A stretch of DNA of 62,344 bases from NCBI GenBank assembly GCA_000277445.1, contig AJWJ01000015.1, positions 37,669 through 100,012 of the forward strand, read 5' to 3'. The stretch comes from Polysphondylium violaceum. Lineage: Eukaryota. Of the stretch, positions 6,277 to 23,730 are shown piece by piece; positions within the stretch are counted from its first letter, which is position 1, and each line of letters begins with the position of its first letter. Under the pieces are notes generated by a model, which was not told the origin of the DNA, searched no databases, and saw only the letters and a list, made by a program, of their open reading frames with translations. The position numbers and the translations under genes are program-made.

Positions 6277-7828
6277 ATGGAGTATTTGGAACTCAACAGC
6301 ACCAAGGAGGGTTTAGCCTCTGCTGTCGATGATATGTGGGTTTTAAATGCAACATATCTTGTATTTTGTATGTATTTTAGTTTTTTTATTATTCCTGCTA
6401 TGATTAATTATTAACAAACATCATTGAAAACAATACAAATATAAATTTAGACATGCAGGCCGGATTTTGCATGTTGGAAGCAGGAGTTGTTAGAGCAAAG
6501 AATGCCAAAAGTATTATTATGAAGGTATACATCATTCATTCATTAACACATAGATAGATATAGATATAGATATTAATAATAATAATAATAATAATACTAC
6601 TATAGAGTATTATTGATACAGCTATAGGGTCATTATTATTTTGGGCGCTAGGTTTTGGATTGGCATTTGGTAATGCCAACAAAGCATCAAATTCCTTTAT
6701 TGGAACATCACATTTTTTATTAATTGGTTATGAAAATCTTTCTTTTTTTGCATTTCAATGGGCATTTTGTGCCACGAGTATAACGATAGTGAGTGGATCG
6801 GTGGCAGAGAGAGTGCATGTAAATAGTTGTTTGGTATATACGATTGTCATGTCGGCGCTGATATATCCGTTTTCAGCGCATTGGGTATGGTCCTATAATG
6901 GATGGCTAAGGAACATTGGCTACAATGGCATTATTGATTTTTCAGGCGGCATCGTCGTCCATATTGTGGGTGGATGCGTTGGACTGGTGGGCGCCTATCT
7001 GGTGGGACCCAGGATAGGAAGGTTTGACAGTGACAGCGGCAAACCCAAACCATTGCCAGGCCACAGCATCACACTGTCGACTCTGGGCGCCTTTATCATA
7101 TGGTACGGGTTCTATGGCTTTAACACTGGCTCCACATTGGGTGTCAGTGGTGGTAGAATCAATATCGCGTCGAGAGCGTCTGTCACAATGACCATCTCTG
7201 CCTGTGCGTCTTGTGCCACCACCCTCTTGGCGATAAAGATAAAGAGTGGGAAATACGATGTCATAAAGTCTGTCAATAGTCTGGTAGGTGGATTGGTGTC
7301 AAGTGCAGCCTGCTGTGCCATGGTTGAACCATGGGCTGCTTTTATCATTGGCTGTGTTGCCTCTTTTGTATATTTGGGTGGTTCAAATTTATTGCTAAAA
7401 CTAAGAATCGACGATCCTTTGGACTCATCGGCCATCCACTTGGGCTGTGGTATATGGGGTGCTCTTAGTGTTGGTATCTTTGCAACTGAAAGAGAATTAT
7501 CTTTAATACTAAGAAAAGAAACCACCGTCTATGGTTTATTTTTAGGTGTATGTATTTACATTTATTATCATCACCATCATCATCATGTCACTTTTACAAA
7601 TGATACTAATATTCAAATCAATTTTTGTAGGGTGGCTTTGAACAACTTGGAATTCAAGTTTTAGGTATAACAGTTGTTATTTTATGGTGTCTAATATCAT
7701 CATGTATATTATTTTTAATTATGAAAAAATTCAATTTACTTCGAATTGATCCAACCAAAGAATTGATGGGTATTGATATGGATCATCATGGTGGTCCTGC
7801 TTATCCAAACAATATATATGTGGTGTAA
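6277..7828 (+). CDS. Ammonium transporter (Amt/MEP/Rh family); about 4 exons (6277-~6364, ~6452-6526, ~6614-7547, ~7633-7828)
   Basis: Amt signatures: [99 protein letters not shown]-terminal [13 protein letters not shown]. Introns have GTATGT/GTATAC donors and AT-rich bodies. The specific paralog (amtA/B/C) could not be decided. Confidence 0.85.
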
Positions 7829-9819: not shown

Positions 9820-10900
9820 ATGTCTACAGGTCCCGCTACAGCTTCAAACAAAAGCGCTGCTTATGATTACTTAATCAAATTACTCCTTATCGGAGACAGT
9901 GGTGTAGGTAAAAGTTGTTTACTTTTACGTTTTTCCGAAGATTCTTTTACACCAAGTTTCATCACTACCATTGGGTAAATATATATTAAATATAGTAGAG
10001 TTCGATTTGTTAGAAAGAACAAACAGACACAAGAGAAAAAAAAAATGAAAAAAAAAAAAAAAAAAAAAAAAAAACTTAAAATATACTAATATCTTTATTA
10101 TTACTCTTATAGTATTGATTTCAAAATTCGTACTATCGAATTAGAAGGTAAAAGAATTAAACTCCAAATCTGGGATACAGCTGGTCAAGAACGTTTCAGA
10201 ACCATCACCACTGCCTATTATCGTGGTGCTATGGGTATCCTTTTAGTTTATGACGTCACTGATGAGAAATCATTTGGTAGTATGTATCATTTAGATTATT
10301 ATTCACTGATTATCATCATCATCATTACTACTATTATCTCTTTCAACATGTTGGTGTTGATGTTGATTTTTAAAATTTTTTAAAAAATTTTAAATTTTTT
10401 ATTTTTTTTTTAAATGATGATATTCTCTTTGTTTTATGTGTCTCTTGATGGAATCAAATCAACTAATCAATGTAATTCATTTTAATATTATTATAGACAT
10501 TAGAAATTGGATTAGAAACATTGAACAACATGCTACAGATTCAGTAAATAAAATGTTGATTGGCAACAAATGTGATATGGCTGAAAAGAAAGTGGTTGAT
10601 AGTGCAAGAGGTAAATCACTTGCCGATGAATATGGCATTAAATTTTTAGAAACATCTGCCAAGAATAGTATAAATGTAGAGGAAGCCTTTATTAGTTTAG
10701 CAAAAGATATTAAGAAACGTATGATAGATACTCCCAACGAACCACCACAACCACACAACACTACAAACATCACTCAGACTAATAATGGCAAAAAATCAAC
10801 TTGTAAGTATTATTTTTGTTGTTTATTATTGATTATCATTATCATACCTCCTGAATTTTCATATCTAACCCTTTCATTGATTTACTTAGGTTGCAAATAA
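9820..10900 (+). CDS. Rab8-like small GTPase (Dictyostelium Sas1/Sas2 family); 4 exons (9820-9974, 10113-10279, 10497-10802, 10890-10900)
   Basis: P-loop GDSGVGKS, effector [62 protein letters not shown] and ETSAKNS motifs. The spliced C-terminus is ...KKSTCCK (geranylgeranylation CC motif) through a phase-1 intron. Intron 1 carries a 27-nt poly(A). Confidence 0.85.
10048..10074. repeat. 27-nt poly(dA) homopolymer inside intron 1 of the Rab gene
   Basis: Direct reading of the sequence; typical dictyostelid intronic homopolymer. Confidence 0.9.
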
Positions 10901-11406: not shown

Positions 11407-14301
11407 ATGAGTCACCCTAATCCATCTATAGGAGGTGGTGTTGGTAGTATTGGTAGCAGCACTAATAGCAGTAGTAGTAACAATAACAATGATGACGATA
11501 AAACTCAAGTTATAAATTACACACCAGAGATATCAACCATTAGTAAAAGAGCATCGGTTATACCCAAAATGACAATCAGTAAATCACTGGATGATCCAGT
11601 TGCACCAAGCACAGGTTCATCAAATTTTCGAAGAGCATCAACTCCACATTATCATAGATCAGGAGCAGATGCAGATAGTAAATCATCACCACCATCAACA
11701 ACAACAACTACTACAACCACCACCACAACAACAGTGAAAACAATTATTCCAGAAACTGTACAAGAGGAAAAGGACAATGAATCAAAGGGCTCTGAAATAA
11801 TAGAATCAGCAGCAATAGTAACAAAAGAAACAATAACAACGACAGAACCACCATTTACAACAATAGAGGCATTACAACAGGATTTAGAAGAACCTTTTGA
11901 AGAGAAACCATCAATTGATGAAATTACAGAGAATATCAACAAATTTATTTCGTCTACACTAAACAATAAGAATTATATCCATAGCAATAGTAATTATGAT
12001 GACGATCATAAAGGACCATTTGTACCATCAGTTCCCATATCTACATCATCACCATCAACTGCATTAATAACTATACCAGAAGCCACAATACTTACAAAAC
12101 CAACTGTATTTGCAACCACATCAACAATTCCAGCTACATCATCATCATCATCATCATCAACAACAATATCACCAACATCAACATTAACATCAACAACCAC
12201 AGCTTCTTCATCAACAACATTCATCAAACAAGAGAAAATAGAAAATAATAATAATAATAATAATACTGATATAAAGATGGATGATGTCGTTGTTGATAGT
12301 AACAATAACAATAGTAGTAATAATAATGGTAATGAAGAATTGATTAAAATAGAAAAGCAGAGGGATGAGCAATTGGCTTTAATTTCACAATTAGAAGAAC
12401 AAATTGAAAATTTATCACAAACAAATCTAGATCAATCATATGAAAATTCAATTTTGGCTTTGGAATTAATATCTAAAAAATATGACAATGAAAAGTTACA
12501 AACCGAAAATGGTAATGTTGAATCATTTACTATTATTGTTATTTAGTATAAATATTAATGTATATATTATAGTAATTTTAAAGTTTGATATTCAAGATCT
12601 CCAGGATAAAGTAGTTTTACATGAAGAGGATCTTCTGAATAAAATAGATGCATATTATCAAGACAACAATAAAAGACTCTTGAATGCTTATAAAGAGACC
12701 ACCGAAATCCATAATAATATAGTTCAGGTAAGATTGATTGTATTATTCAATATTAGATATAATTGATTGATTGCTAATTATTATTATTAATTATAGGGAT
12801 TGGAATTAAATTTACGAAAAGAAGTTAAACAAAATGAAGTCAAAACTAATGAATTGAATCAAGAGATTGAAATATTAAAAGAGACAAAAGCAAATGCAGA
12901 GTCACAAGTGATAGAGGTCAAACAAAAATATAAACAACAACAAGAAGAGATTAAACAGAGACTAAAGACTGTCCAAGAGGAAAATATATCACTCAAATTA
13001 AAAGATGGCACATCTACAAGTCTGGGACATGTACAAGAAGAACTGTTTGAACAATTAAAGGTGGATGCTAAATTTATTGTCGACAAGAATAAAGAGTTGA
13101 AAACTACAATCAAGACAATGAGATCTCAACACAAACAAGATATAGATACTATTAAAAAAGCACATTTGGCTGAAATTAGGGCTTTGAAAGAAGAGATGGC
13201 AAATTATACCAAGGTTTATGAACAGGAAAAGAGATCAAAGGAAAAGCTTTCAGATCAAGTTATGCAAGACAGACTTAGATTAGAGGTAGAGTTGACTGAA
13301 CATAAAGGAAAGATTGATTTACTTCATTTGGAATTAAAAGTTCAAAAAGATAAAGTAAAGGATTTAGAGAAACAATTGATATCAACAAAAACAGCAAATC
13401 CTGTTATTATTTCAGCAAAGCCAGCAGTATCATCGTCATTGTCATCTTATCCCTCCTATCAACCTATAGTACCTTTGTCACCTTCTAAAAGCAAAGCGCA
13501 ACCAATAAAAAGAGTATATCAACCAGAACCCGAACCAGAGCCAGTGCCAGAGCACCCAATGGTTGAAGAGCATGTAAAAGAAAAGCCTAGAAGAGGAAGA
13601 CCAGTTAAAAAGAAAGAAGACATACCAGAACCAGAACCAGAACCAGAGCCCGAACCAGAACCAGAGCCAGAGCCAACAAAGACAAGGGCATCTCGTTTAA
13701 AAAAAATGAAAGAACCAATTCCAGAACCAGAGCCAGAACCAGAAGAACCAGAGTCAGAGCCAGAAGAGCCAACCAAAACAAAAAGAATATCTCGCAGAAA
13801 AGCCAAAGAGCCAGAACCAGAACCAGAGCCAGAACCAGAAGAGCCAGAAGAACCAGAAGAGATAGAACAACCAACTAAAACAGTAGCCAAAAGAGTATCT
13901 CGCAGAAAAGTCAAAGAACCAGAGCCAGAGCCAGAGCCAGAGACATCAATAAAGACAACTGCTAAAAGAAAACCACGTTCAAAACATGTCGAAGCAGAGC
14001 AAGAAGAAGAGGAGCAAGATGATTATAAAGGTAAAAAGAGTGAACCTGCATTGAAAAAATCCAAACTCGATACCTTTTTAACACAAAGTACACCAGGTAA
14101 GCTTATTATTATTATTATTAATTATACTCAATACTGAATTACTAATAAATATTTTTTATAGCTAAAAATAATCAATTTGATATGAGTTCCTACAAGGTTC
14201 CTGACAGAGGTACAACCAAGGCATTTATTCAAACCTTTATGGGCAGAGGTTTACCAATTCCAAGTTTTTCCAGTATGAACATGCCCAATGCCAAGAAATA
14301 A
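11407..14301 (+). CDS. Ser/Thr-rich, coiled-coil, PEPEPE-repeat protein with an AT-hook; 4 exons (11407-12511, 12573-12727, 12797-14096, 14162-14301)
   Basis: N-terminal poly-T/poly-S low complexity. The central region is heptad-rich (QLEEQIENLSQ..., EIEILKETKANAESQVIEVKQKYKQQQEEIKQ...). The C-terminal part has (PE)n runs separated by basic units (KTRASRLKKMKEP / KTKRISRRKAKEP / KRVSRRKVKEP) plus KPRRGRPVKKKED (AT-hook GRP). Exon joins were worked out by frame-consistent GTAATG/GTAAGA/GTAAGC donors and AG acceptors. Confidence 0.6.
13520..13935. repeat. Coding microsatellite-like array (GAACCAGAACCAGAGCCA)n encoding (PE)n
   Basis: Visible tandem hexamer repeats CCAGAA/CCAGAG; these explain the antisense GS-rich pseudo-ORFs on the minus strand. 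Confidence 0.8.
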
Positions 14302-14456: not shown

Positions 14457-15022
14457 TTAAATAGCTCTTTCTTCAAAGGTGGATGTTGTGGTTTTTGTAG
14501 CAGTATTTAAAGTTGGATCAATGGTTGTTGTGGTTTCTTTGGTGTGAGTGGTTTCAACAGTGTTGGCATTATGATGTGTTTTTAATTTATCTGGAACTTT
14601 TTCATTGAGAGACTCAAGTTTTTCTTTGGATACTTGGTAGCCTTCATTCATTTTCTCTTTGGAATAATCCCAACCTTCACCTAATTTCTCTTTGGTGACA
14701 TGACCGACCTCTTGAAGACCGTCCCAGGTTCTATTTAAATATTCTTTACTAAGATTACCCATTTCTTTGGCTTTACCTACTAATTGATCAAAAAATCCAT
14801 GTTCGGCTATTGTGTGATTTTACAATATTATTAAAAGTAGAAGTATTAGAATAAATTTGTCTTAATAGAAATAGATTTATCTCTTATGGAAATGGAAAAA
14901 ATGTTATATTTACTTTTTGGGGCGGTCACCACAGTGGGAGCGCCTGGAGCAACTGGGGCAACTGGAGCAACTGCTGGAACAGTGGTGGTAGTTTCGGTTG
15001 TAGTTGTTTTAATTGTTTCCAT
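14457..15022 (-). CDS. Small LEA-like repeat protein, paralog of the downstream CQHWT-repeat gene; 2 exons (15022-14914, 14806-14457)
   Basis: Exon 1 is METIKTTTTETTTTVPAVAPVAPVAPGAPTVVTAPK, followed by a phase-1 GTAAAT donor. The acceptor cacaatag then gives TEHGFFDQLVGKAKEMGNLSKEYLNRTWDGLQEVGHVTKEKLGEGWDYSKEKMNEGYQVSKEKLESLNEK.. with 11-mer K/E repeats. It shares the 'KEMG...KEKLGE' block with the neighbouring gene. An internal MGNLSK is in frame. Confidence 0.5.
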
Positions 15023-15628
15023 TTTGTATCTGTATATTAATTTATTAATGGTAATTATTGTTTCAGTGGAATAGAGTTTTTATATCCTGTTGAGAACAGT
15101 AAAAGTACAAATTAGTACATTTTTTTTTCCATTTATGTAATTTTTTTTTTTTTTTGAATTTTTTCATTTTTTTTGAAAACATTTCAACCAATTTGGAAGA
15201 TCTAATAATTACATTTATGAAAAATATTATTCGTCACAATAACAATAATAATAACCAAAATTCATCAATTTTTGGTGATTAGTAAAATAATCAGAGATTT
15301 AAGTAAATCTTTATCATTAGATACAGATAATATTTTATCTATATTATTGAAAGTCTTGTGAATAAATTGTTGTATGAATTTTGGTTATACATTGAGAAAT
15401 ATTTTAATTCACATAATTAAACAAGATCTTTTAATTTATTTTTATTCTGAAGATTGGAAAAAAACAATGAATTTCTTATCTTAATTTTAAAATAATATTA
15501 TTGAGTAGGACAAAATCGAAAAGAAATCAAAATAAAATACAATAAATGATTAAGGTGGGGAAAAATTAAAACTTTATATCTATATTTATTAAAATTAAAT
15601 GAAAATTATATACAATTAAACATTTAGT

Positions 15629-16978
15629 TTAGTTTTTCTTGGGTCTACCTCTACCTCTTGAAGCTTTCTTTTCAACTTCATCAGCGGCGTTATTTAAAGC
15701 TTTTTTGGCATCATCTGTGGTGTCTTTGATGGCATCAGCTGCTTTATCAATTCCAGTTTTGGCATTGTCGGCTGCATCTTTACAACCTTTACAGATAGCA
15801 TCCTTTGATTCAGCAGTCCAATGTTGACATTTTTCCATACCATCTTGAGTGGCGTGTCTGATGGTTTCTGCCATATTTTCACCCTTATCTTTGGCGTCAG
15901 CAGCTAAGGAGTCAGCTTTCTTTTTTGCGTCAGTGGCCATTTCTCCCATTTTATCTTTGGCTTCAGCAGCTTTCTTGGAGGCATCCTTGTTTAATTCAGC
16001 AGCTTTATCTTTGGCATCAGTGGCCATATGGTCCATTTTATCTTTGGCATCACCGGCCATTTTCTTGGCGTCTTTGTTTAATTCAGCGGCTTTATCTTTG
16101 GCATCAGTGGCCATATGATCCATTTTATCCTTGGCATCACCTGCCATATGGTCCATTTTATCCTTGGCGTCGCCGGCCATTTTCTTGGCGTCCTTGTTTA
16201 ATTCGGCGCATTTATTACAGATGGCATCCTTTTGTTCAGCAGTCCAATGTTGGCATTTTTCAACGGCATTTTCAGTGTTTTTCTTGGCATCTTGGAGCAT
16301 GGCTTCATTCTTATCTTTAGCATGAGTGGCCATGTTTTTGGCAGATTCAGCAAGATCAGCGCATTTATTACAAATGGCATCCTTTGATTCAACAGTCCAA
16401 TGTTGACATTTTTCAATGGCATTGGAGGTGGCATCTTGGGTGTTGTGGAGTAACTCTTTAGATTTTTCTACCATATTATTGGTGGCTTCACCAAGTTTTT
16501 CCATTGTGGCAGCACCCATTTCTTTGGTTTTGTCAAGGACTGGTTGTAAAGAAGAGGTAACATAAGTGATACCACTATTGATAGCATTCTTTGTAGAGTC
16601 AATGGCAGTTTGGGTACCTTCAGCAAGGGATTCAACCATACCTTGGGCTTCAACTTTAGCTTTCTTGGCATCTAATTCTACTTTTTCATTAGCATTTCTT
16701 TTTCCTTTTTATTATTATTATTATAGACAGAGAAAGTGAAGAGTGGAGAGAAAAAAAATGTTAGATCTTTATCGAAAATCCTAAAAAAAATAATATTCTT
16801 TTTTAAAAGAGTACTTTATTATTTAATTAAAAGGATGGAGATAAAAGATCATAATCATATTTTAAGGAAAATGTAAAGGATAGAGATTTATAGTAGTAGT
16901 GAAACACTTACCAAATTCATTTAAATTTGAAGAAACGGAAGTAGTTGATTGTTTATCACCTGGATGAATTGAAGACAT
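15629..16978 (-). CDS. LEA-like repeat protein with four C-Q-H-W-T...C-x2-C modules and a C-terminal AT-hook; 2 exons (16978-16912, 16704-15629)
   Basis: Exon 1 is MSSIHPGDKQSTTSVSSNLNEF followed by a GTAAGT donor. The acceptor aaaaag rejoins GKRNANEKVELDAKKAKVEAQGMVESLAEG... Four EKCQHWT(A/V)E(S/Q)KDAICxKC modules, tandem 11-mers (AGDAKDKMDHM / ATDAKDKAAEL), and it ends RGRGRPKKN. Confidence 0.65.
15900..16300. repeat. Imperfect tandem direct repeats (about 33-99 bp units) inside the LEA-like CDS
   Basis: Repeated DNA blocks ggcatcaccggccat(a/t)ttcttggcgtc(c/t)ttgtttaattc(a/g)gc... and ggccatatg(g/a)tccattttatc(t/c)ttggc recur several times; they encode the DAKDKMDHM 11-mers. Confidence 0.7.
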
Positions 16979-17611
16979 TTTGATATTATATATGTATGTA
17001 TTTTACTTTTGAAAGTATTTGTAAAAAGTTAATTATAGTTTTTTAAAATTAGATTTATAATTGTTGTTGTTGTTGTTTGAATTGAATAATGAAAATAAAA
17101 AAAAAAAAGAACTACTTAAATAGAAATTGTTCAACACGAAAAAATAATAAAACAAGAATTACTATAAAAAGTATATTAGATGAAAATCCTCTATTCATAG
17201 TAAAATTTGGTCTATGTTTGAAATCACATTGTTATCATAACAATAGTAGACATACTATTTCTGAAAAAGGAAAAATGTAAAAATTTTTGCATTTCATTTT
17301 TTTCATAATTTTTTTTTTATTTGAAAAGTGGGGGTAAATCTGCTTTTTTTTTTTATATTGCACAGATTTTCATTTGAAAAAGATACATACATATACACAC
17401 ATCATCAAAAAGTAATTAATTTAATTTAAAATTTAATTTCACATATGGTATCATTTTAAAAGAATATTTTATTACGTAAACATGATCAATTGTTTGAAAA
17501 TGATAACAAAATGAATTTATCTTGCCCGATTGATTAAGATTTATTTCGTGAGAGTGTAGCGGCATTAAGATTAATAATAATCTTGACAATTAATAATAGT
17601 GTTGGGAATAA

Positions 17612-18916
17612 AAATTATCGATTAAATCTTTCAGAGAAGGGGATAAGGGTTTCAGGAATGGAAGAGTAGGGCACCACGTTGAGGGTGGCACATACTCTGG
17701 GATGAGTGGGGAGATATTGAATGCACTCCATATTGGCTGGACAGGGATTGTTGAGTTCACATGAAGTGAATTCACATCTGTTAGTGGTGGTATTACAAAA
17801 TTGTTGAAATAGACATGCGTCTCCATCACATTCAATACCACCTCCATTTGAAAACGGATGCCATTCAATGCATAGCCCACCCCAACCAAATGTATCACAT
17901 CTCCAGTCAACGGGACAAAGGCTGCAATTGAATTGTGTGCCAAGTAAATCTATGTTCACTGGAACACAATCTGCATTTGAGAATACTCCTTTTTGACATT
18001 CAAATGTATCTGGACATACTTTGGTTTCACAAGTTAATGCTGGATCATCTATAAGAGAGAGAAGATTAATAATTACAAATACATATTATATTGTGAATAT
18101 AAAAATAAACTGTACCTAAAAAATCTATTGTTTTAAAGCAAGATACTACACCAACCCCAACAAGTTCTTGACATTCTGTCCCTTGGGAACAATTTAAATA
18201 TTTACATGATAATGGTAGACATGTTTGTGTTTCTGCTATATATCTACATATATGACCTTCAGGACAAGGTAAACTACAAAACTTTTCACCATTAAGTTCT
18301 AAATGTTTTGTTATACTATCTAAATATAAATATATTGTTAGTAATAATATCAAAAGACTAGTAGATTATTTAATCATAAATACCATCTTCTACACAAACA
18401 GGTTGTGGAGGACAACAAGGTGATTTTGAATCACAGTCTGTTCTACCTATTAATTTACATGCTAATCCCTTTGCTTCACATCCTATACTTTCACATGTAG
18501 CTATTTATAATCATTAATTAATAATTGTTATTTTTGCTATCTACTAATCTTATCTATTTATACATACCATTTGGTATCGGAAATACATCATAGCCTACAT
18601 AATTTGGGAATTCAGTGTTTAGTTCATAAGTGATTTCAGTTTGGGGATCAATAGCACATGCTACTGGTGTCGCTGATTTTTCATTTGTAGTATAAGTTAT
18701 ATAGGTTTCTATATCAACACATAATCCTACGCCACCGGGACAACAGGATTTTAAAATAAGTGGTGTACAATTGGGATATGAAGCAGAGCACACATTATAA
18801 TCTAAAGTTTCACATTTATATAATGCATCGACTATTACTCTATCAGGACCAACACAGCAATAGTATACCAAAACCAATAAAAACCAATTACTTGCTAATC
18901 GTTTCATCTTGATCAT
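17612..18916 (-). CDS. Secreted cysteine-rich (EGF-like / knottin-like) protein; about 5 exons
   Basis: Signal peptide MIKMKRLASNWFLLVLVYYCCVG. Successive Cys-rich exons (..CKYLNCSQGTECQEL.., ..CPVDWRCDTFGWGGLCIEWHPFSNGGGIECDGDACLFQQFCNTTTNRCEFTSCELNNPCPANMECIQ..). Minus-strand donors are visible as ATACATAC / CTGTACC on the plus strand. Confidence 0.55.
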
Positions 18917-21222: not shown

Positions 21223-23730
21223 ATGGATAAATATAGAATAACACCACATAAAATTACATTATGTATACTAACTGAATATTATCTTAATGGGAGAATACAT
21301 TATCATCAAAAACAATCTTTATCCCATTTATTAATCAATAACATTAAAGTATGTGTGGTGGGATGATATCGTGTCTATCTGTGTAAATAAATATTAATAC
21401 ATATAAAACAATAGAAAATAGATGATAATATAGATGAGATATCGTTGTCAACATTTATAAATACAGAGTTACAGAATATATTGTCTAGTCATTTTCTAAA
21501 CAATGAGTTTTTAGAGATGCTCTCTTTTGAGAGTGTAGATGATTTGTTTAGCTTTATAACATCGTTAAAGGATTTATTCCATAGTAGCAGTAGTAACGAA
21601 AACAATGGGAATAATACACAGCAGCAACAACAACAACAGCATCTATTGGATCCAAGGAGTATACTGGGTATGTTTGTTAAAAAGATTATATTAAACTTTA
21701 GTCAAATACTCTTTCCTGGCCTAGGTAAACTATATGATCAAATGGCATTTTATGTAAATCAGTTTTATCGTGATACTGGTCGATTAAGAGATGAATATGA
21801 TGACGACGAGGATGAAGAATATGAAGAGGATGAAGAAGAAGAAGAAGAAGAAGAAGAACAAGAAGAAATTGTCCCTAATAAAGTAGGTTTTCTTTCGCCT
21901 TTGGACGAAGAAAGATTTGTGTATGAACAGGTGATTAGATTAGAATCAAGGGTAAATAAAGAGCATCCAGAGAGAATTGGACAAGAAATAAAGAACCTAA
22001 AGAAGCTGTTACCAAATGTAAACAGAGTGCACTATATTGCATTTCTTAATCATCTTGCTCACCACGACTATGAATACAGTTTGGAGGAGCTACACAGGTA
22101 TTTTGATTACAGTAATAGTCATTCACTCAACAATGATAAAACCAATGCAATGTTGCCCTATGCCGTCCTCAATCTAGCCCAACTAGACTACCATTACGGT
22201 CATTACGAAAACAGTTTTCTGGCACTATGCGAAGCCATACGTATTGCACAAGAGAGAAGCGATCACTCTTGTTTGGCCATTGCCGAGAATTGGTTGGGCA
22301 AGTTTTTGCAACCGAGTATAGTCAAATCCATGCAATTGTCGAGTGGCGGCAGTAGAAATGACAATGGGTTCCTTGTATCCCAAAATCACTCTGAAATCCT
22401 GACAAAGTCCATCACTCGTGCTCATAATGTCGAGATGCCAGATTTGCTTGCACTCAATCTCAATAACCTGTCTAGTCAAAGAATATTCAATAGCAACAAC
22501 AACAACAACAATAATAATAGTAGCAATAATACCATATGGACAGATATATTTCAACCCCTCCAAGATAGTTCTTTGTTGGTAACATCACAAATCAATAGTA
22601 ATATGGTCAATAGTATTAGTACCACTGCTTGGGAGCTATTGGGAAATGTTGATTTATCTAGCTACTTTACAGAGCTTGTATTAAAGTCATCGTTCAACTC
22701 AAACAATGAATTATCATTACAGAATCCCATTTCATTGGGGACAAGTATTGGTGGTAAACAGAGTCAGGCATCAACACTTTCTGATGTAACTTCACTCTGT
22801 AGAATGGCATTGCTTAAAGCTAAAAAAGATGATTTCAAAGGAGCCATAAGTACTCTACTCACCTGTCACAATATATTTAAATACCATAGATTGGTAAATA
22901 CAACGGTATCGTTTACCACCCTATTGGTATTATATGATTGTTGTTCAATGGAAATAATCAACTCTTCAAATTGGTTAATTGATTTAGTTTTATCAAGCAA
23001 TAATAACAATAATAATAACAATAATAGATCAAAAGATTATTTACTGGAAATAATAATTGAACAAATGGTATCATTAACAGATAAGTTTCAACCAGATGAT
23101 GATGGACAAGGTTGTGGATGGTTGTTTATTATCAATGTCTATGAAAAGATATCTAGATACTATATATTTGAAAAACAATGTTTTGAAAAGGCCTATCGAT
23201 TCACAACCAAAGCCATTCAAATTGCCAAAACATATGGATATCATTACTATATTGCCCATTTTCATTCATTGTTGGCCAAAGTGTTTCAACAAGTATCACC
23301 ACCATACTCTTTTGTCGGATTGTCCAACACATTGTCTAGTGTCTCTCTCTCACAACAATACAACAACCATTGGCTCATTTCTGAATCAAATTTGGATTTG
23401 ATTCAAATTCATTTGGACGCCAATCAATTTGACAAAGCCTCTCTTCTCATTCAAGACACCGAAACATTTGTTTTAAATAATTTTAAACATTGTTGTACAT
23501 TTTATTTACTAAAGTCCAAATTATTGATAAAATCAAACAGCAACAATAGCAAAGAAATTATTAAATATTTGGATCAAGCGGAAATGTATGCAAGTAAATT
23601 GGAAATTACATTGACAAATTTATATTACAAGGAAATATTTTATTTAAAGAGTTGTTTGTACAACTCTATCAACGATACAGAGAAAAGAAATGAATATGCA
23701 TTAAAATTTAAATTAATTATTAATACATAG
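21223..23730 (+). CDS. anapc5: Anaphase-promoting complex subunit 5 (APC5); 2 exons (21223-21348, 21415-23730)
   Basis: Exon 1 is MDKYRITPHKITLCILTEYYLNGRIHYHQ.. (compare human APC5 VTPYKIAVLVLLNE). Exon 2 has LPYAVLNLAQLDYHYGHYENSFLALCEAIRIAQERSDHSCLAIAENWLG (compare human LRYAALNLAALHCRFGHYQQAELALQEAIRIAQESNDHVCL). GTATGT donor at 21349, acceptor caatag at 21413-21414. Confidence 0.85.

Follow-up and report, generated by a model that had tools for sequence, protein, structure and literature searches.

What kind of protein is encoded by a pair of adjacent, repeat-rich genes in the dictyostelid Polysphondylium violaceum, and does it belong to any established family? The two genes lie at positions 14457-16978, on the minus strand, of a 62,344-nucleotide stretch of genomic DNA (assembly GCA_000277445.1, contig AJWJ01000015.1, positions 37,669 to 100,012), which is called the window here and whose coordinates are used throughout. 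An initial annotation, made from the letters alone, had described the genes as encoding LEA-like 11-mer repeat proteins, the larger with a repeated Cys/His module and a C-terminal AT-hook. Start and stop codons bear out both the interval and the pair of minus-strand genes: each gene has two exons, 14457 is the final base of the stop codon of the small gene, and the ATG of the large gene starts at 16978. A plausible, though tentative, answer is that these are lineage-restricted protective helix proteins, built like LEA, YtxH and apolipoprotein repeats, to which Cys3-His clasps and an AT-hook or nuclear-targeting tail would have been added.

The large gene and its metagenomic orthologue

The larger gene corresponds to an annotated hypothetical protein, CYY_000748 (KAF2077947.1; P0001), which is 98% identical to our 380-amino-acid model. 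Its parts are as follows.

16912..16978, minus strand: exon 1, MSSIHPGDKQSTTSVSSNLNEF plus the first base of the following codon; the ATG and the GTAAGT donor (16911) were read directly
16705..16911, minus strand: intron of 207 nucleotides, GC 0.22; the frame is restored across it, and the acceptor AG is at 16706-16705
15629..16704, minus strand: exon 2 including the stop codon, GC 0.415; the whole protein has 380 amino acids, 41 kDa, an isoelectric point (pI) of 6.4 and a grand average of hydropathy (GRAVY) of -1.01

Using an alignment of the three Cys/His modules of this protein to scan JGI metagenome contigs, we retrieved one locus, Ga0256787_1018222 (1804 nucleotides; L001). Its gene shares the ATG context, has a GTAAGT donor after NEF+G, a 214-nucleotide intron whose acceptor is an A-run plus AG followed by GKRNSNENIDLD..., and a product of 398 amino acids. 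The two proteins are 81% identical, with a Nei-Gojobori synonymous distance (dS) of 0.73, a nonsynonymous distance (dN) of 0.11 and dN/dS of 0.15; the ratio stays between 0.08 and 0.24 across every region. Such a ratio at that dS, together with the same exon structure, indicates that the large gene is real and under purifying selection.

That the locus reflects an annotation error, or a low-complexity open reading frame (ORF) that is decaying and has no function, is hardly credible. The homologue is known only from one environmental contig, and for the small gene neither the 152-amino-acid model nor the bare 101-amino-acid ORF is present in the public protein collection. Against these points, the low dN/dS holds over 380 codons, every repeat unit is in frame, and exons and introns contrast clearly in composition, with exon GC of 0.35-0.51 versus about 0.19 in intron and intergenic DNA of this AT-rich window, in which ORFs are split by short introns. 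The small gene has strong helical periodicity as its only such argument, an orthologue being known for the large gene only.

The two-exon structure that the initial annotation had proposed for the large gene stands at its donor, 16911, which is identical in the public model; that model belongs to the P. violaceum annotation made with BRAKER1 under RNA-seq guidance (PMC7259674). The proposed acceptor at 16705 departs from it by 27 nucleotides. The public protein has 371 amino acids, with the acceptor placed downstream (AG at 16679-16678), which removes GKRNANEKV. The AG at 16706-16705 is kept in L001, where the annotated AG reads TG, and the 27 nucleotides between the two acceptors are in frame and without indels in L001. 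Exon 1 is 94% identical between the two loci. The acceptor at 16705 would be favoured over the annotated one only mildly, because the 27 nucleotides are no better conserved (81% identity) than the aligned intron (80%).

Some 135-155 nucleotides before the large-gene ATG lies a block, GAACAATTTCTATTTAAGTAGTT / GAACAATTTCTATTT(A/T)AGTAGTT (17110..17132, minus strand), that is nearly identical at positions 48-70 of L001 in the alignment of the 5' flanks, with indels in the AT-rich DNA around it. It is a candidate promoter element.

An amphipathic helix of 11/3 periodicity

For 11/3 periodicity the two genes take the top two places among the 173 stop-free stretches of 70 codons or more that the window contains. 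Hydrophobicity over amino acids 24-372 of the large protein gives a single dominant Fourier peak at 3.65 residues (= 11/3), with a power of 462 versus 24 +/- 10 in 300 shuffles, none of which reaches 462. In the small protein the K/E-rich helix region (amino acids 37-112, encoded at 14580-14806) is 11/3-periodic as well, with a power of 105 at 3.65 residues versus 20 +/- 10 in shuffles. The periodicity of the large protein is phase-coherent over about 350 residues, and its identity autocorrelation peaks at lags of 11, 18, 29, 40 and 51, each approximately a whole number of 11/3 turns.

When residues are placed around this helix relative to the global hydrophobic moment of the large protein, the apolar face is enriched in Ala (35/15/15) and Met (13/2/3) and the polar face in Asp (5/12/23) and Glu (3/8/17); Lys shows no preference. 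Such a class-A-like pattern is also that of apolipoproteins and group-3 LEA proteins. Neither a hydrophobic segment nor a signal peptide occurs in the large protein, its maximum 19-residue Kyte-Doolittle mean being 0.3, and AlphaFold2, run on the single full-length sequence, predicts it to be all-helical at low confidence (predicted local distance difference test score, pLDDT, of 57). Both 11-mers singled out in the initial annotation are found in the proteins as written, AGDAKDKMDHM three times and GWDYSKEKMNE. A copper site formed by Met and His of the MDHM motif was also considered; the motif occurs three times in P. violaceum and reads LDNM or LNDM in L001, and a conserved Met/His metal site was rejected for that reason.

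Part of the helix is encoded by a tandem array. The initial annotation had put recent internal duplications at 15900-16300, and the array could be located more closely.

15913..16215, minus strand: in-frame tandem array with units of 33, 87 and 120 nucleotides (11, 29 and 40 amino acids), AELNKDAKKMAGDAKDKMDHMATDAKDKA and variants, found with Tandem Repeats Finder and also covered by a repeat family from a separate repeat search

All three periods are multiples of 3, with 84-85% matches. P. violaceum has units of 40, 29 and 29 amino acids, and L001 has four 29-amino-acid units in two nearly identical pairs (positions 986-1420 of that contig), for a net difference of 18 amino acids. Because the unit lengths and the interspecies indel (11, 18, 29 and 40 amino acids) are all approximately whole numbers of 11/3 turns, turnover of the array never breaks the amphipathic stripe. 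On this comparison each lineage has reshaped the array on its own, and every step has preserved the helical phase. The helix array expands and contracts by unequal crossing-over in phase-keeping units.

A conserved Cys/His/Trp module at predicted helix turns

The helix of the large protein is interrupted by a module, C-Q-H-W-T-x7-C-x2-C, of which the initial annotation had counted four repeats. Only three copies are present, with their first Cys at amino acids 122, 173 and 315, and the DNA copies that hold them lie within 16336-16422, 16183-16269 and 15757-15843.

16361..16408, minus strand: module 1, amino acids 122-137, CQHWTVESKDAICNKC; conserved in L001, helix break in the AlphaFold model
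16208..16255, minus strand: module 2, amino acids 173-188, CQHWTAEQKDAICNKC; conserved in L001, helix break in the AlphaFold model
15782..15829, minus strand: module 3, amino acids 315-330, CQHWTAESKDAICKGC; conserved in L001, helix break in the AlphaFold model

Every one of the nine Cys and three Trp of the protein falls inside these three modules, whose consensus is E-K-C-x-H-W-T-x-E-x-K-x-A-x-C-x2-C. The ligand spacing C-x-H-x9-C-x2-C is the same in all six copies from the two species (three in the window, three in L001), and 14 of 40 columns are invariant over them: T-7, E, K, C, H, W, T, E, K, A, C, C and two Ala. Between the window and L001 the module cores are 76-86% identical, and the sole change in the C-Q-H-W-T pentapeptides is Q to E in module 3. 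The initial annotation had named absence of the module from orthologs as a finding that would refute it, and the outcome favours the annotation: the only orthologue found, at the dN/dS given above, keeps 9/9 Cys, 3/3 His and 3/3 Trp, along with the AT-hook.

Comparison of the paralogous copies within the gene gave, for the 21-codon core, proportions of nonsynonymous (pN) and synonymous (pS) differences of 0.10-0.20 and 0.29-0.43, and for the flanks pN of 0.35-0.57 and pS of 0.54-0.99. The module core has thus been retained during divergence of the flanks, and, with pS of about 0.3-0.4, the copies are not very recent.

Three of the four helix breaks in the full-length AlphaFold model fall on CQHWT. 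When the three copies were supplied as an alignment, a 61-residue fragment was modelled with a pLDDT of 75 as helix 2-25, a loop consisting exactly of C-Q-H-W-T, and helix 31-60, an antiparallel helical hairpin that turns at the motif. The most economical reading of these models is that the module would punctuate the helix with a conserved turn and bear a Cys3-His set there; this set may bind a metal, form disulphides or simply pack the hairpin. One His and three Cys at a predicted helix junction, with three such sites per protein, recall by analogy the HCCC sites of the TAZ domain, in which three such sites staple helices, and the Rad50 zinc hook. Unlike those, the module has the spacing C-x-H-x9-C-x2-C, and it matches no zinc-binding family in sequence or fold.

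A profile of the six copies found nothing among PDB sequences at E<=10, and Foldseek with the hairpin model returned generic antiparallel hairpins only, all at E>3. Neither the module (C-x-H...C-x2-C) nor the QHW tripeptide occurs in any of the 28 weak matches from the exhaustive protein search described below. The novelty claimed for the module in the initial annotation is borne out by its absence from those matches, from PDB sequences and from Pfam.

The same features could be taken to describe a structural helical bundle or hendecad coiled coil, in which module disulphides, within or between molecules, would cross-link the protein to give a stable matrix, as might happen in the spore or upon oxidative drying. 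We consider this highly improbable. The phase coherence over about 350 residues, the helical hairpin of the fragment model and the confinement of nine conserved Cys to three sites would suit such a bundle; however, its core positions are mostly Ala, Lys and Thr, which are ill suited to holding a coiled coil together, confidence in the full-length model is low (pLDDT 57), the protein bears no secretion signal, and the cytosol is a reducing environment.

An AT-hook-like C-terminus

The initial annotation had also reported a C-terminal RGRGRPKKN, and the motif is present.

15632..15658, minus strand: AT-hook-like motif RGRGRPKKN, amino acids 372-380, read directly

The segment SRGRGRPKKN (amino acids 371-380) has an R-G-R-P core in a basic context and is identical in L001 despite synonymous changes in nearby codons. 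AT-hooks of the HMGA type (PF02178) share this core and context, reading RGRGRPRK or RGRPKK; unlike HMGA, the large protein has one copy, at its extreme C-terminus, and is otherwise acidic to neutral.

A chromatin or DNA-architectural protein might combine these parts differently. In such a protein the three Cys3-His modules would be small zinc units acting with the AT-hook on AT-rich DNA, and the helices would serve as spacers, as a coiled-coil scaffold or as a DNA-protecting cloud like that of the tardigrade protein Dsup. The strict C-x-H-x9-C-x2-C spacing in six of six copies, the retention of the AT-hook at the exact C-terminus and the position of the modules at predicted helix-helix junctions speak for this arrangement. 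It is nevertheless quite unlikely: the modules match no zinc-finger model or solved structure and show no clear ligand geometry when modelled, the protein as a whole is acidic to neutral (pI 6.4) and has only one AT-hook, and the parallels with TAZ and Dsup are analogies only.

Relation to known families

To place the large protein, an exhaustive phmmer scan was run against 1.84 billion protein cluster representatives. Below 1e-10 it found only the large protein itself, and no orthologue among the representatives. There were 28 weak matches, with E values from 2.6e-9 to 8.6e-4, nearly all to the repeat region; they are a mixture of bacterial, fungal and metagenomic amphipathic-repeat proteins. 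A Pfam scan of 29 proteins, these 28 plus the query itself, matched Apolipoprotein in 24, YtxH in 18, ApoLp-III in 8 and LEA_4 in 3.

For the large protein, the best Pfam model is YtxH (PF12732), with 36.0 bits for the 380-amino-acid model, 36.8 for P0001 and 37.5 for L001 (cut-off 37.5), and the precomputed Pfam list for P0001 names PF12732.13. Apolipoprotein (PF01442) scores 34.2-34.6 bits versus a cut-off of 90, and ApoLp-III (PF07464) 27.4-27.5 versus 36.3. NCBIfam gave far sub-threshold matches only, and a search of PDB sequences with the whole protein gave ApoA-IV as its best and sole match (E=1e-3). Word-index searches with the full-length large protein, with its module region and with the small protein returned the query itself or nothing; the index also missed an exact P0001 sub-sequence, so these negatives carry little weight. 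In sequenced dictyostelids outside the P. violaceum lineage there is no detectable homologue. CYY_000748 is unmentioned in the literature, where, among the best matches, nothing links LEA proteins with AT-hooks or concerns LEA-like proteins in Dictyostelia. By these scores the large protein would fall in the LEA/YtxH/apolipoprotein architectural class, outside every established family.

Three known systems of this class resemble it most closely. Group-3 LEA proteins (LEA_4, PF02987) share its tandem 11-residue units, extreme hydrophilicity, 11/3 helix, Ala-rich apolar stripe and class-A-like charges, and 3 of the 28 weak matches are true LEA_4 proteins. Unlike them, the large protein has units of its own (AGDAKDKMDHM / ATDAKDKAAEL), nine Cys and three Trp in three modules, a C-terminal AT-hook and a family confined to one lineage. 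YtxH general stress proteins (PF12732) have a similar LEA- or apolipoprotein-like helix repeat. They typically carry an N-terminal membrane-anchoring helix, which the large protein lacks, and the family is mostly bacterial and without modules or AT-hook. Exchangeable apolipoproteins (ApoA-I/A-IV/E, apolipophorin-III) are likewise made of 11/22-mer amphipathic helices; the large protein differs from these in being non-secreted, in lacking proline punctuation and in its far greater hydrophilicity.

The last comparison raises the alternative of a lipid-surface coat, similar to exchangeable apolipoproteins, perilipins or alpha-synuclein, whose helix would bind lipid droplets or membranes with packing defects and whose Trp/Cys modules would serve at the interface as anchors or hinges; such a coat would need no special link to desiccation. 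The best Pfam and PDB similarities (Apolipoprotein, ApoLp-III and ApoA-IV), the class-A-like charges, the weakly hydrophobic Ala/Met/Thr face and the position of Trp and Cys of modules 1 and 2 on or near the apolar face all fit a coat of this kind. We nonetheless judge it unlikely, as the scores are far under the family cut-offs (34.6 versus 90; 27.4 versus 36.3), a signal peptide is lacking, the apolar face is only faintly developed (GRAVY -1.01), and the AT-hook tail is left unexplained.

Two of the weak matches, P0009 and P0012, come from JGI metagenome contigs of about 1.2 kb and look like secreted protist proteins, with a signal peptide, 11-mers of the KEKMGN type and a C-terminal domain that is conserved. 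They make up an 11-mer family of their own, as yet without a name. PF28068.1 is a further entry in the precomputed Pfam list for P0001.

A proposed protective helix protein with added modules

The tentative reading given at the outset, of a protective helix protein, can now be set out in full. The locus holds a tandem gene pair confined to the P. violaceum lineage, and both genes encode cytosolic or nuclear proteins that are highly hydrophilic and consist almost wholly of 11/3 amphipathic helix. The apolar stripe is formed by Ala, Met and Thr, with Asp and Glu in the middle of the polar face and Lys all round, an arrangement shared with group-3 LEA, YtxH and exchangeable apolipoprotein repeats. 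Such proteins would be mostly unfolded in dilute solution and would form long amphipathic helices upon dehydration or at a membrane or macromolecular surface; once folded, the helices could provide a protective shield, probably during dormancy or stress. Each module of the large protein would make a helix-loop-helix turn, and its Cys3-His set could serve as a structural metal (zinc-type), redox or disulphide clasp. The C-terminal RGRGRPKKN may be an AT-hook or a nuclear-targeting signal that ties the large protein to an AT-rich genome.

Several observations weigh against this reading. The LEA-like description holds for the architecture (GRAVY -1.01, an 11/3 amphipathic helix, tandem 11/29/40-amino-acid units) and fails for family membership, since neither the window protein nor L001 matches LEA_4 (PF02987) at E<=1. 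The 28 weak matches are probably a case of compositional and periodic convergence, not homology. Classical LEA proteins and hydrophilins are typically almost devoid of Cys and Trp, of which the large protein has nine and three. The module matches none of the described zinc-finger families, Pfam giving only noise at E>0.1 (Zn_ribbon_15, zf-C4_ClpX and Zn_Tnp_IS91). If the helix were continuous through the module, its apolar side would hold the first and third Cys, Trp, Ile and Leu, and the opposite side would hold His and the middle Cys; a four-ligand site on one continuous helix was set aside as unlikely for this reason. In the AlphaFold hairpin the CxxC lies 8-11 residues from the loop bearing C-x-H, and single-site tetrahedral geometry is therefore not evident. 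At the C-terminus, the Pfam AT_hook model (PF02178) scores 10.6 bits for the window protein and 10.4 for L001 against a cut-off of 17.4, and with its net charge of about -3 the large protein would not be expected to have a general affinity for DNA.

A more far-reaching version, drawn by analogy, would make the large protein the founder of a class of genome-tethered protectants of social amoebae: a LEA-like shield whose hairpins are clasped by metal- or redox-sensing modules and which an AT-hook holds to AT-rich chromatin, guarding DNA and chromatin in dormant spores as an independently arisen counterpart of Dsup. We regard this as very unlikely. Dsup is a basic protein that binds nucleosomes via an HMGN-like motif. 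It shares with the large protein a restriction to one lineage, a hydrophilic and mostly helical or disordered chain, and a short C-terminal motif of a chromatin- or DNA-binding type; unlike Dsup, to which it has no sequence relationship, the large protein is near-neutral and carries an AT-hook.

If the protective reading is true, a hydrophilin of the desiccation or stress type would have been invented recently in one dictyostelid lineage, where it can be seen evolving by phase-preserving unequal crossing-over, and would have acquired a conserved Cys3-His-Trp module as well as a DNA hook, neither of which has been reported in LEA-like proteins. It would then offer a tractable system for studying the origin of orphan protective proteins and their targetability to chromatin; P. 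violaceum can be transformed and edited by CRISPR (PMC7259674, PMC12929561). If it is not true, the large protein would be one more lineage-restricted low-complexity protein.

The small gene

The second gene of the pair lies directly downstream of the large gene and has the following parts.

14914..15022, minus strand: exon 1, GC 0.51, METIKTTTTETTTTVPAVAPVAPVAPGAPTVVTAPK plus the first base of the following codon; Thr/Ala/Pro/Val-rich, donor GTAAAT
14807..14913, minus strand: intron of 107 nucleotides, GC 0.196, phase 1, frame restored
14457..14806, minus strand: exon 2 including the stop codon; the whole protein has 152 amino acids and a Thr-rich tail

The initial annotation had connected the two genes through a shared KEMG..(K/M)EKLGE block. 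This block is not colinear, as KEMG and EKLGE are separated by 3 residues in the large protein and by 20 in the small one. A Smith-Waterman alignment of the two proteins scores 58 versus 32-39 +/- 5-6 in shuffles, a score reached by 1-11 of 1000 shuffles, which lends weak support to paralogy of the two genes. The small protein may carry a cysteine-free relic of the module, because the best local alignment pairs its RTWDGLQEVGHVTKE with ATQDGMEKCQHWTAE of module 3. A candidate third family member in the window, a tblastn match at 27334-27402 (E=0.19), was rejected as a chance match; it sits in an unrelated ORF.

Genomic neighbourhood

The surrounding genes at 6660-7664, 10436-10900 and 21445-23730 are housekeeping genes, encoding an ammonium transporter, a fragment of a Ras-family GTPase and anaphase-promoting complex subunit 5 (APC5), and so do not form a functional cluster with the pair. 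There are no tRNA genes in the window. The neighbour at 11407-14137 on the plus strand (ORFs 11407-12546 and 12800-14137) has no Pfam match; it is K/E-rich and coiled-coil-like, with long Pro-Glu (PEPEPE) runs and an AT-hook-like KPRRGRPVKKK of its own. Just upstream of the large gene, at 17590-17959 on the minus strand, are two overlapping Cys-rich ORFs (for example ...CPANMECIQYLPTHPRVC...), again with no Pfam match, which are probably exons of a secreted Cys-rich protein.

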